Notes: generated by a model not told the origin, from the letters alone. A DNA stretch of 26,370 nucleotides from Candidatus Izemoplasmatales bacterium (GCA_050177605.1 JBFXGX010000024.1:1-26370), one strand, 5' to 3'. Positions 20,499 to 23,512 are shown, counted from the stretch's first letter. Translations and numbers: made by a program.

Positions 20499-20535
20499 AA
20501 AAATCGATTATGATTCAAGTCATAATCGATTTTTT
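20499..20535. terminator. Bidirectional intrinsic terminator after pdxT
   Basis: 15-bp perfect inverted repeat AAAAATCGATTATGA / TCATAATCGATTTTT. Confidence 0.85.
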
Positions 20536-20895
20536 AATGTTTTTCGTATTTAACTAGATATTTTATATACATTAATACGATTAATGAAATAAAAGGGAAA
20601 TAAAGTAGATCTATAAAGAAAGGATATTTACAAACCAGTTTCTTTATATCAAAATAGTTAAAAAATTAGTATGATTCTAAACCCGCATCTTCAGGCAAAT
20701 AGGTTCTAAATTACATTTATGAAGAATAGATTTTTGGCCATCTATATAGCATATTATCATATTAGCTGGAATTAAGAAGTTCAACATATTGATAATTAAT
20801 CTATCAACAGTTTGTATTTTAAATATCTACTAGTCTATGATAAAATTTATAATCAATAAATTAAGTCTTTGGAAATACTGATCCACTAAAAAGCC

Positions 20896-20923
20896 AACGC
20901 TACTATCAGTCAAAAACAAACCT
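20896..20923. repeat. Dispersed 28-bp repeat, copy 1 (coding remnant)
   Basis: 25/28 identical to 23422-23449; minus strand reads GLFLTDSSV. Confidence 0.75.
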
Positions 20924-21017
20924 ATCTCAGTTCCACTAGCCTTAAACCCATACGTACTTTTTAAGATTTTTCCACCAAAAAAATCCAAAGTCCAATGATA
21001 TATTGATACAAATTAAA

Positions 21018-21509
21018 CTATCTATTTGGATAATGGTATTCTATTTTATTAGGAGCGAAGCGGTTATAACTTTGAATCACTTCTTTCGATGCATGCATTC
21101 GAATCAATGATTTGCTAATTAATTGATTTAAACTGTACTTGGATATATCAAAATTCGCGATAAACAACCATGGTTCTGTAGTAGACATAATTTTGTATTG
21201 TACATTTTCATCCCACGAAATAAATTTCTTTTTATAATTTTTGAATAAAGATACGTGAATACCAGTTTCGTCAAACTCAATAGTTGTATACCCCTTTATG
21301 GTAAGGTGAATCTGTAATCCAAGCGGTCCCACAACTCCTAAAGAATTCATCGTAATCAGTTCAAAAAGAGTAAGTTCAGCTAGTCTAGATACATTACTTA
21401 GTTCGAAAATTAACAATAAAATTGACAAAACTGTTAAGAAAATAAACATCTGAGCAAACTCTTTTGAAGAATAAAATTTATTAATATCTTTATTGGTATC
21501 TTTTTTCAT
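21018..21509 (-). CDS. Hypothetical two-TM membrane protein, separated from its RBS by IS110
   Basis: 163-aa ORF with two hydrophobic segments and a PH-like tail (IEFDETGI...ISWD); no SD next to the ATG in the present state. Confidence 0.65.
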   Translation of the reverse strand: MKKDTNKDINKFYSSKEFAQMFIFLTVLSILLLIFELSNVSRLAELTLFELITMNSLGVVGPLGLQIHLTIKGYTTIEFDETGIHVSLFKNYKKKFISWDENVQYKIMSTTEPWLFIANFDISKYSLNQLISKSLIRMHASKEVIQSYNRFAPNKIEYHYPNR

Positions 21510-21529
21510 AAGTCTTGTATAATCAAAAC

Positions 21530-21750
21530 GTCTTTAATAGATGATTTGATTATCCTTTCTTTATTTGTTTTTGATTTTTAATCGAATTGAGCACTGTGGA
21601 TTTGTTTCATATTTTTTATAGCTTTGACTATTATAGGAGACTCTTACCACAGTTCTTATTTTTTAATGTCAATCAGTAAGTTAGCGCTAGACGCTTCATC
21701 ACAAGACTAAATAAATAAGAATACTGTGACTTACCCAGTGCTAAATCTCA
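21530..21750 (+). ncRNA. Putative IS110 bridge (seek) RNA; ends approximate
   Basis: Nested stems AGCACTG/CAGTGCT (21590/21736) and CACAGTTCTTATTT/AAATAAGAATACTGTG (21648/21713), hairpin AGCG/CGCT; segments complementary to the donor junction and the empty target. Confidence 0.7.
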
Positions 21751-21765
21751 TAAGGAGGTGTTTCT

Positions 21766-22335
21766 ATGTATTATGTTGGAATTGACGTTTCAAAGTACAA
21801 GCATGACTGCTTCATAGCTACTGAAGCAAAAAGTATTAAAGCATTTCAGTTTGATAATAATCGTATAGGTTTCGATTTGTTTCTTACAACACTGAAATCC
21901 TTAGATCGATCACAAGAAATAAGAATAGGTCTTGAGGCAACGGGACACTAAGGCATGAATCTCAAACAGTTTATTTGCGCATCTGGTTATACTTATCTAG
22001 AATTCAATCCTTACTTAACACATCAGTTTTCGAAGGCTATGTCGTTACGTAAGACAAAAACAGATAAGGTAGACGCAAAAACTATTTCAAGTATGCTGGG
22101 TCCCGTTGACTACAAGACCTTACATACTTCATTTTATCACATTAATGAATTAAAACAATGTGTTCGTTATCGTGATCTTAAAATGAAACTCAGATCTAAG
22201 ATACTCGTTGAACTTACAAACGTCCTTGATCGGACGTTCCCTGAGTTCAAAGCATTCTTTAATCATCGATTAGTAGGTAGCGCCATGTTTATTTTGATCT
22301 TTCATTACTTAGATAACCTTATTGTGATTGTGTAG
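21766..22335 (+). pseudogene. IS110-family transposase/recombinase with an in-frame stop and C-terminal truncation
   Basis: YVGIDVSK, IGLEATGH*, FNP, KTDKVDA, LDRTFPE; TAA at 21949 where Tyr is expected (EATGHY); no second (Ser-containing) domain; AAGGAGGTG RBS. Confidence 0.93.
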
Positions 22336-22450
22336 CGCAATCAGTCAATCTATATCTTCTATATCTCTAAAATTACCTTATTTCTAATCCATTAAGGTTT
22401 TTTGTCATTTTTTCTATTTTTATTGATTTATCTATTGACTAAAGATAGTT

Positions 22451-22513
22451 AGTCACCTTATTTTTAACAGACTAGAGAAGTCTATTATACTGAAAAATAA
22501 AGCGCTTATGTAA
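22451..22513 (-). promoter_or_regulatory. Orphaned promoter and RBS, probably of the 21018-21509 gene
   Basis: -10 TATAAT 22484-22489, possible -35 TTACAT 22508-22513, SD AAGGTGA 22453-22459, cre-like CATAAGCGCTTTAT 22497-22510. Confidence 0.6.
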
Positions 22514-22550
22514 TTGGCAATTACTTTATATGTCGTATGCATATCACTTA

Positions 22551-22582
22551 TTAAATACAGCAGATATTTCTGTTGTATTTAA
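22551..22582. terminator. Long hairpin, possible terminator downstream of the lipoprotein gene
   Basis: TTAAATACAGCAGA-TATT-TCTGTTGTATTTAA (13/14 match); weak U tract. Confidence 0.5.
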
Positions 22583-22643
22583 TTGTTATGTAGTTTTATT
22601 CCTAGTCTGCATATTAATAATTTCTATTTAAGAAATCCCCATG

Positions 22644-23366
22644 TTATAACGGTTCATTCCAAGGAGAACTCTCCAAGAAATCAATTAAACCATCTTGATA
22701 TGTAAAGTAATCCGTAAATGTTCGATATCCCACTTCACTATCGTATGTTCCATCAGAATTAAACAACATTATTACCCACTCGTCACTCAATCTAGCTTCA
22801 GCCACAATTAATACCCTTCCATAGTCGTCTGAAATATAGTAATCTAAATTTCTATCATCAGGAAAATGTTCATCATCAGGAAATATGTACTCATATAGGG
22901 GAGCTATTTGCTCATAAGTTAATGGAGAATCTTGTTTAGTTCTTGCTATTTCTGAACATTTGATACGATTATTATCTATTTCGGAATTCCAGTCATTATC
23001 AATCTTTATTTCTTCAATTTCACTTTCACTAAACTCATTATCTGAAGAAGAAATGAAGTTAAGATTTGAATAATAACATACTTCATTTTCGTCTGAATAC
23101 TGCATAACTAATAAACTATAAGAACTAATATTATTACCCTCAAAATAAGTAAAAAGAATTTTACCATTGTCATCATATTCTAAAATATCAATCTCAGGAT
23201 CAAATCTAATTTCACTTTGAATAAATCCTTTTGTCCCTGGAATAACATTCAATGCCTGAGTATACAGGTTAGAATAATCTCCTTCATATTCAAATGAGTA
23301 ATTCCGACAACTCTGAATACCAAATATTACTAATAACATTGTAAAAATCATTATAAGTTTTCTCAT
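22644..23366 (-). CDS. Acidic predicted lipoprotein of unknown function (candidate immunity protein)
   Basis: MRK + hydrophobic core + IQS-C20 lipobox-like signal; D/E-rich; AGGAGA RBS. Confidence 0.75.
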   Translation of the reverse strand: MRKLIMIFTMLLVIFGIQSCRNYSFEYEGDYSNLYTQALNVIPGTKGFIQSEIRFDPEIDILEYDDNGKILFTYFEGNNISSYSLLVMQYSDENEVCYYSNLNFISSSDNEFSESEIEEIKIDNDWNSEIDNNRIKCSEIARTKQDSPLTYEQIAPLYEYIFPDDEHFPDDRNLDYYISDDYGRVLIVAEARLSDEWVIMLFNSDGTYDSEVGYRTFTDYFTYQDGLIDFLESSPWNEPL

Positions 23367-23421
23367 AGACTATATTCTCCTATATTAAAAAGATTCCACT
23401 TAAATAAGCAATTGACACATA

Positions 23422-23449
23422 AACGCTACTCTCAGTCAAGGACAAACCT
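23422..23449. repeat. Dispersed 28-bp repeat, copy 2 (coding remnant)
   Basis: Minus strand reads GLSLTESSV, continuing YVSIAYLSGIFLI* with the stop overlapping the lipoprotein RBS. Confidence 0.75.
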
Positions 23450-23512
23450 CAATAGGCTTAAAACCCTCTGAATCCATTCGTAGTTACGAATATTTTCACA
23501 ATGCTATTTCTA

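Follow-up and report, generated by a model that had tools for sequence, protein, structure and literature searches.

A hybrid remnant of two IS110 lineages in an Izemoplasmatales contig, and the targeting of translation-initiation sites by its relatives

The locus and the termini of the 944-base stretch

The window analyzed in this work is a stretch of 26,370 nt from Candidatus Izemoplasmatales bacterium (GCA_050177605.1, JBFXGX010000024.1:1-26370). Within it, 944 bases (21511-22454) are located between a minus-strand gene of the ORF list encoding a 163-aa protein (21018-21509) and a leader module of the same strand (22455-22583). The start codon of the 163-aa gene, which reads CAT on the plus strand (21507-21509), lies 5 nt from the left end of the element and constitutes the left half of the target. 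The right flank starts with a reverse-complement Shine-Dalgarno sequence (ACCTTA, i.e., TAAGGT), and a terminator-like hairpin (22550-22583) closes the module. Between these two flanks, a non-coding left end (LE), an interrupted recombinase gene, and a non-coding right end (RE) were distinguished.

For the comparative analyses, related loci were searched for in 60 genomes of relatives (29 loci) and in a genome collection (80 loci, 42-100% protein identity), and full-length copies were numerous among them. The loci come from Izemoplasmatales, Acholeplasmataceae, Clostridia, and other Bacillota, and it should be stressed that they are not independent: several originate from one genome or are close copies. 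A plasmid collection yielded one weak and uninformative match, a Lactococcus IS110 gene (68% identity, 27% of the query). It is also worth mentioning that the recombinase genes of L031 and L032, found in an Izemoplasmatales and a Bacteroidales metagenome-assembled genome (MAG), respectively, are 99-100% identical and have the same right flank, which reflects either a binning error or a very recent transfer. In another locus (L074), the right end stops after TTGACTTTTAAT, approximately 95-135 nt after the recombinase match, and the sequence that follows resembles the 3' end of an opposite-strand tRNA gene.

A first-pass annotation of the window had described the stretch as a reconstructable miniature IS110 with AGTC at both ends and a promoter formed only upon circularization. 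Reading of the bases confirmed AGTC at 21511-21514 and at 22451-22454. On the left side, the CAT is followed by a single A, AGTC, and TTGTATAAT (21515-21523, i.e., TTG plus TATAAT), and on the right side TTGACT (22435-22440) is followed by AAAGATAGTT, AGTC, and ACCTTA (22455-22460). When the ends are joined over one AGTC, TTGACT and TATAAT (21518-21523) are separated by the claimed spacer of 17 nt, composed of the 14 nt after TTGACT up to the end of the right AGTC and the three (TTG) before TATAAT. In the integrated element, GGTATC occupies the -35 position (21495-21500), in agreement with that annotation. A consensus scan of 21300-22700 listed no promoter-like site using the left-end TATAAT in situ, and the sole partner of TTGACT in situ was TATTTT at a distance of 18 nt (9/12 matches). 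For the right flank, a minus-strand sigma-70 promoter was considered as well and rejected: the best hexamers there were 25 nt apart or matched at 2/6 positions, and none appeared in the scan.

Taken by itself, a shared tetranucleotide is weak evidence. One reading of the locus is that no mobile-element end is present at all, i.e., that an IS110 gene fragment simply borders on AT-rich intergenic DNA in which AGTC and the split promoter arose by chance; repeats of 4 nt are to be expected at random, and the left end folded as a single sequence is unremarkable (z = -1.7), for which reason an alignment-based fold was used instead. We consider this reading practically negligible, since both end motifs are conserved at constant positions in 66-69 of the 80 relatives, within unrelated flanks, and they covary with the loops of the RNA described below. 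The pattern TTGAC[A/T/G]-N12-(T/C/A)C closes the right end in 69/80 related loci, with TTGAC[A/T/G] exactly 14 nt before the right terminus (69/80), and the left end begins with NNG-TATA(A/C)T, having the box at LE positions 4-9, in 66/80; in these counts, the regex picks for L050, L068, and L083 were left out as wrong and the coordinate of L080 was corrected. This conservation argues that the split promoter stands above chance, and the predicted halves described in the first-pass annotation, a -35 hexamer in the right end and a -10 hexamer in the left end with a joined spacing of 17 nt, are a feature of the whole family.

The same annotation placed the crossover core somewhere within AGTC, and this could be narrowed down. 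The final 2 nt of the left flanks (n = 56) are TC (29), CC (20), AC (4), GC (2), or TA (1), those of the right ends (n = 69) are TC (52), CC (15), or AC (2), and the complement of the core covaries in the RNA guides of the relatives. These data identify the crossover core as a dinucleotide, which is TC in the window (left copy at 21513-21514). The AG of the right AGTC is part of the element as its last two bases, in agreement with the family consensus ATAGTTAG-TC, in which the right terminus ATAGTTAG is followed by the core (22445-22454), and the AG of the left AGTC is target sequence.

The limits of homology to other copies were also checked. In all loci reaching the left end (12/12), homology stops at the same base, i.e., at (T/C)C|NTG-TATAAT, and the upstream flanks are unrelated, each with a CAT a few bases away. 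The right boundary is fixed by the flank homology to the uninterrupted sites L005, L015, and L017, which starts at 22450-22454. No inverted repeat is formed by the ends, TTGTATAAT... and ...ATAGTTAGTC, and the TC core is the sole flanking repeat occurring family-wide. With the end motifs, the homology stops, and the RNA covariation in agreement, both positions are IS110-family termini, and the proposal that these are the true ends of an element is upheld.

In IS621, a -35 in RE and a -10 in LE are joined on circularization, according to PMC11208160, and by analogy we infer that the junction promoter would fire only in the circle. Neither an RE-LE joint of a circle nor a joint skipping 21511-22454 was present among the contigs of runs X1-X4, a form of data from which rare forms are dropped.

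Bridge RNA and target sites of the family

The LE of the window (21515-21765, plus strand) represents an A-lineage IS110, and from its first base it is 88-91% identical to L032, L033, and L002. A consensus fold was built on an alignment of 62 non-redundant sequences, including that of the window, and it contains two stem-loops with internal loops; a sequence pattern for the RNA stem matched in 77/80 related loci. The target-binding loop (21594-21652) has an outer stem, CTGTGG/CCACAG, which is invariant in the 62 sequences, a 5' strand with TTTCATA (21605-21617), and the 3' strand AGGAGACT (21635-21642). The donor-binding loop (21668-21730) has the inner stem AGCG/CGCT, the 5' strand AGTAAGT (21675-21681), and the 3' strand ACAAGACTAA (21701-21710). 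Compensatory changes were found in the inner stems of both loops, i.e., in 24, 7, and 6 of the 62 sequences for the target loop and in 15, 10, and 20 for the donor loop. An Rfam scan of 20500-23500 with E up to 1 gave no match, so no curated bridge-RNA family was recognized there. It is worth mentioning that the summed contig depth of run X1 rises from ~28 to ~990 over the bridge-RNA region only (21603-21736), a conserved stretch common to many related elements in the community.

Guides were matched with the pairing rule given in section 7 of PMC11208160, in which left guides correspond to the top strand and right guides to the bottom strand, each with the 2-nt core included, and the same arrangement was found here. 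Across 55 unique elements, the median match between the 3' strand of the target loop and the right junction is 9 nt long for cognate pairs and 5 nt long for non-cognate ones. The 3' strand of the donor loop, which is the reverse complement of the right-end terminus plus the left-end start, fits the RE+LE joint over a median of 7 nt in cognate and 4 nt in non-cognate combinations (53 unique elements). For the left guide of the target loop and the left flank, the signal is weak family-wide (medians of 5 nt cognate versus 4 nt non-cognate). Guides and junctions covary: AGGAGAC occurs with TC|TCCT, GAGGTGAC with TC|ACCTC, AGAAAGGC with CC|TTTCT, and GAGGTGTC with AC|ACCTC, and the first three LE bases change together with the guide (TTG/CAA, TCG/CGA, ATG/CAT, and ACG/CGT). 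On the strength of this covariation, the LE encodes a bridge RNA whose loops match both the ends of the element and its flanks.

In a working relative, excision would join RE to LE over the core and rebuild TTGAC-17-TATAAT, from which the bridge RNA and the recombinase would be transcribed, and the target loop of this RNA would pair with the CAT-spacer-core on one strand and with the Shine-Dalgarno sequence on the other one.

The flanks of the related loci have a common layout, i.e., CAT, 4-10 nt, (T/C)C, and TCCTT/ACCTC, in a fixed orientation. The distance from the last base of a CAT to the left end is 4-10 nt in 48 of the 56 left flanks (38 of these having 6-7 nt), and in 54/58 right flanks a Shine-Dalgarno complement is present within the core plus 7 nt. 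Forty-four of the 48 ATGs open ORFs of at least 40 aa, and 35 of these 44 ORFs have Pfam domains, usually beginning at residue 1-10. The target genes include those of IleRS, TrpRS/TyrRS, GluRS (three aminoacyl-tRNA synthetases), UppS, Ddl, Fmt, and BacA. Judged from these sites, the whole family inserts into the gap that separates the Shine-Dalgarno sequence from the start codon.

The bridge recombinases of IS621 and the IS110 group are reportedly the subject of work by Durrant et al. in 2024 (PMC11208160) and by Hiraizumi et al. in 2024 and 2026. The target of IS621 is the REP sequence, whereas the family described here has the translation-initiation region as its target, and its core is TC/CC and not CT. 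A long non-coding left end and an RNA with two internal loops, encoded by it, are common to both.

Concerning the choice of target, the closest likeness is that of IS900 of Mycobacterium avium subsp. paratuberculosis, whose target motif CATGNNNNNNTCTCCTT, as given in PMC8141618, resembles the CAT/Shine-Dalgarno site in the same orientation; this likeness rests on the target motif, and the host of IS900 belongs to a phylum different from the hosts of the present family (Izemoplasmatales, Acholeplasmataceae, and Clostridia). The targeting behavior is, in consequence, already known from IS900, and what is presented here is its occurrence in another phylum, with a visible RNA basis. A paper of 1997 by Doran is said to bear the title 'IS900 targets translation initiation signals...'. 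Outside IS900, no report of IS110 targeting of Shine-Dalgarno sequences, ribosome-binding sites, or start codons was found in the literature; subscription papers and supplements (e.g., the target tables of PMC11208160 and PMC11187229) may hold one. The 80 loci extend the IS900-type preference to low-GC Bacillota and Mollicutes-like genomes, in which it is widespread, and the RNA offers a simple explanation of it, as one guide mimics the Shine-Dalgarno sequence and the other carries CAU.

Recombinase remnant, lineage switch, and probable history of the locus

Two ORFs (21766-21951 and 21955-22335), with a TAA codon between them, jointly span the whole PF01548 (DEDD_Tnp_IS110) profile (positions 1-155; E = 1e-8 and 8.6e-15), and their matches to NF033542 are below the cut-off because they are fragments. 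They represent an A-lineage recombinase pseudogene (21766-22295, plus strand) limited to the DEDD_Tnp_IS110 domain and ending after codon ~177. Aligned with the full-length P0001 protein (387 aa, locus L003), the window matches residues 1-177 with 95% identity and one stop. Position 21951 is C in other contigs of the same metagenomes, and therefore the TAA at 21949-21951 is a mutated Tyr codon. The full-length relatives P0001 and L051 have both the DEDD N-terminal domain and Transposase_20, as does the IS621/IS110 group, and they exceed the NF033542 cut-off. The C-terminal Transposase_20 domain (PF02371), which carries the catalytic serine, is absent from the window ORFs, and for this reason the copy is a remnant and not a functional member of IS110; lacking that domain, this broken hybrid also differs from IS621. 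A profile search of the genome (66 contigs, 89% complete) gave no PF02371 match, and DNA and protein searches of the same contigs found no second copy of the element, though at this completeness a full-length copy could be unassembled. The sequence data characterize the element as a broken, single-copy, and presumably immobile relic.

Comparison with the relatives indicates that 21511-22454 is a hybrid, made up of 785 bp of one IS110 lineage (A) on the left and ~160 bp of another (B) on the right, the recombinases of the two lineages being 47-52% identical. The A-lineage part (21515-22295) is 88-91% identical to full-length copies. The A-type locus L032 shows 90.5% identity over 21491-22295 and then diverges, and L033, also A-type, is 87.7% identical from 21491/21501 to 22295 and diverges at the same place. 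The B-type locus L051 shows the reverse picture, i.e., 83.8% identity over 22293-22458 and only 67-73% in the LE and the recombinase gene. The match to A extends to 22295 and that to B begins at 22293, which places the A/B joint at 22293-22295 with an overlap of 2-3 nt. The B-lineage tail (22293-22454, plus strand) begins with the last seven codons and the stop of the other recombinase gene (22293-22316), out of frame with the A reading frame, and continues as the RE of that lineage. Compared with the end of L051, this tail shows 84% identity (167 columns), and compared with L064/L006 77%, and it gave no significant match to A-type right ends; over the final 20 nt it agrees fully with L051 and with L064/L006, but not with the A-type right end. 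The joint is bridged by contigs of runs X1, X2, and X3, belonging to two studies, and thus it is not an assembly artefact; both outer junctions are bridged by contigs as well. Lineages A and B are both present in G002, a genome of the same genus. The joint was found in no other copy among the 60 relatives, and the flanks are the same in all bridging contigs of the four runs.

The two flanks of the hybrid differ in the guide that they fit. The right junction is matched over 9 nt by the target loop of L051, whereas the A-type target loop of the window itself fits over 5 nt. At the left flank, a side that is weakly discriminating family-wide, the match comprises 7 nt (TTTCATA) for the A-type loop of the window and 3 nt for the B-type loop of L051.

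The right flank is 95% identical to L005, which comes from another genus (G028), and similar to L015 and L017. In these three loci the leader continues without a break as far as the start codon of a serine-recombinase-like gene, which is absent from the window. Using tblastx, we compared the whole window with 7-10 kb around the three serine-recombinase loci, and only the 130-bp leader was shared, with no synteny. An uninterrupted allele of the left site was not found among 40 relatives searched through homologs of the 163-aa protein, which gave only 25-31% matches in two genomes.

Lineage switch, B-type guide fit of the right flank, and the missing serine-recombinase gene together suggest that the two junctions most likely stem from two insertions joined by a deletion. 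We regard it as probable that two IS110 insertions of the same orientation were followed by a deletion between them, which left the immobile relic at 21511-22454; the order of these events we infer. At the 163-aa gene, an A-lineage element would have entered the gap between Shine-Dalgarno sequence and ATG, giving the left junction CATAAG-TC|TTGTATAAT. A B-lineage element of the same orientation would have entered the corresponding gap of a gene of the serine-recombinase type, giving the right junction ...ATAGTTAG-TC|ACCTTA. Everything between codon ~177 in the recombinase gene of A and the last seven codons of that of B, including the serine-recombinase gene, would then have been lost in a deletion involving 2-3 nt of microhomology. 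The two AGTC would most likely come from these separate insertions, with TC as the shared core and AG matching by coincidence, and the empty site CATAAGTCACCTTA, predicted in the first-pass annotation, probably never existed, given that the right flank fits the B guide and precedes a serine-recombinase gene in relatives.

The switch of lineages at the deletion joint would also be expected if a full-length natural A/B recombinant had inserted once and later suffered an internal deletion across its A/B switch, a history requiring just one insertion and one deletion. Nevertheless, a full-length A/B recombinant was found neither among the 80 loci of the genome collection nor among the 29 loci of the 60 relatives, the right flank fits the window's own A-type loop only at the non-cognate level (5 nt, versus 9 nt for the B-type loop), and in L005, L015, and L017 the leader precedes the serine-recombinase gene and no homolog of the 163-aa gene. 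Such a single insertion seems improbable to us.

The designation as a miniature IS110 retains the ends, the core, and the split promoter, all typical of the IS110 group, but one miniature element is not what lies at the locus, as it combines two lineages and a truncated, stop-containing recombinase gene. A 944-bp hybrid mobilized in trans as a non-autonomous unit, which could have entered as such and might form a circle with an active junction promoter, is nonetheless conceivable: its termini, core, bridge-RNA loops, and both promoter halves are intact, the donor-loop 3' strand ACAAGACTAA matches the hybrid's own RE+LE joint over 10 nt, and full-length A-type copies are present in the same metagenomes (contigs that stop matching at 22292). 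In size, the copy falls into the class below 1 kb of the compact IS110s of Hu et al. 2026 (bioRxiv 10.64898/2026.08.14.744561), and natural IS110s down to 843 bp are reported as active in that preprint. That active 843-bp element, however, has an intact 201-aa recombinase, whereas the window copy has a stop-interrupted N-terminal domain and sequences of two lineages, and the preprint attributes no activity to elements with truncated recombinases. Moreover, the hybrid exists as one genome copy and at no other site in the relatives or the four metagenome runs, so that the multiple dispersed copies of one deleted form expected of MITE-like elements were not observed. The genome (89% complete) yielded no recombinase C-terminal domain, the left donor guide AGTAAGT and the B-type terminus AGTTAGT differ at one position, and the two flanks fit two different target guides. 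Mobilization of the hybrid as a unit is, in our opinion, unlikely.

The probable succession of two insertions and a deletion has parallels in the same preprint (bioRxiv 10.64898/2026.08.14.744561), which describes hybrid LT|RD and LD|RT junctions after insertion as well as repeated local insertions and rearrangements at IS110 loci. The importance of the relic itself, a fixed and broken remnant, is slight, and its value is that of a worked example: bridge-RNA loops assign each junction to an element, and this exposed a probable deletion between two neighboring insertions that end-to-end reading had missed.

The 130-bp leader module (22455-22583) was also identified in G013 and G034, upstream of serine-recombinase-like genes, and it always adjoins cassettes whose proteins carry a ...YCANNPVMYLDPSG... 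motif. Presumably, this motif is typical of polymorphic-toxin (RHS-type) loci. The module seems to be mobile or recombining on its own.

The left-end hairpin and a possible replacement ribosome-binding site

Unlike in IS621, the LE of the family starts with a hairpin overlapping the -10 hexamer (21519-21553 in the window; RNAfold of 54 unique LEs), followed directly by a CCTTTC motif (21554-21559; GAAAGG on the minus strand). The hairpin covers 5/6 bases of the -10 box, and its sequence varies with the pairing kept; in the L034 clade, for instance, TATACT goes with AGTATA. It is more stable on the plus strand in 41/54 unique elements, and its G-U pairs amount to 42 on the plus (recombinase) strand and 15 on the minus strand in the 54 unique relatives.

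A hairpin over the -10 box fits poorly with a transcript start ~7 nt after TATAAT. A transcript starting there would be devoid of the outer stem, so either the RNA starts elsewhere or the hairpin acts in another molecule. In relatives, a second TATAAT is located 8-9 nt before the bridge-RNA stem, which could also drive the RNA, and the window has a degenerate copy of this box, TTTAAT (21577-21582). In L047, L049, L050, and L054, a full TTGACT-N19-TATAAT was found in the LE, directly before the bridge-RNA stem and ~195 nt before the recombinase start, which suggests a predicted promoter for the RNA in the integrated state in one clade.

In 49/54 unique LEs (mean of 1.7 in shuffled sequences), positions 37-53 contain a CCTTTC-like motif at a distance of 0-5 nt from the hairpin, and 7-15 nt (median 10) separate the hairpin base from the host CAT. 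Read on the host-gene strand, the motif is Shine-Dalgarno-like and, measured across the hairpin, it lies ~10 nt from the host ATG. A tentative and, on balance, doubtful interpretation is that the LE supplies a predicted replacement Shine-Dalgarno sequence (GAAAGG-like) on the target-gene strand, which the hairpin would bring to ~10 nt from the ATG, so that insertions at essential genes would be tolerated and stubs kept as leaders. If this were true, the relic in the window would persist as the leader and ribosome-binding site of the 163-aa gene, and this IS110 subfamily would not simply destroy the ribosome-binding sites that it targets. Besides the motif and its spacing, the interpretation draws on the essential genes among the targets, on an IleRS gene of G032, and on short left-end stubs, both described below. 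The strand preference of the G-U pairs (42 to 15 in favor of the plus strand) speaks against it, and the CCTTTC motif could instead be an anti-Shine-Dalgarno sequence acting on the recombinase mRNA.

The expression of essential genes located behind insertions into the Shine-Dalgarno gap becomes a directly testable question. In G032, a full element separates the sole IleRS gene from its T-box leader, with the IleRS frame intact (930 aa), and this genome (90% complete) contains no other close IleRS match. The element, complete and 1.5 kb long (L004:1493-3266, G032:C29), has the T-box leader (Rfam RF00230, 117 bits) on one side and the IleRS start codon on the other.

Solo left-end stubs without a recombinase gene were also observed (approximate limits), i.e., L013:1456-1576 (~115 bp), L027:1510-1565 (56 bp), and L028:1505-1630 (~125 bp), each of them separating a Shine-Dalgarno-like sequence from the ATG of a host gene. 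The host gene of L013 is thrS, whose T-box leader precedes the stub. In L027, the shortest stub with 56 bp, nothing but the joint, the hairpin, and the CCTTTC motif is left.
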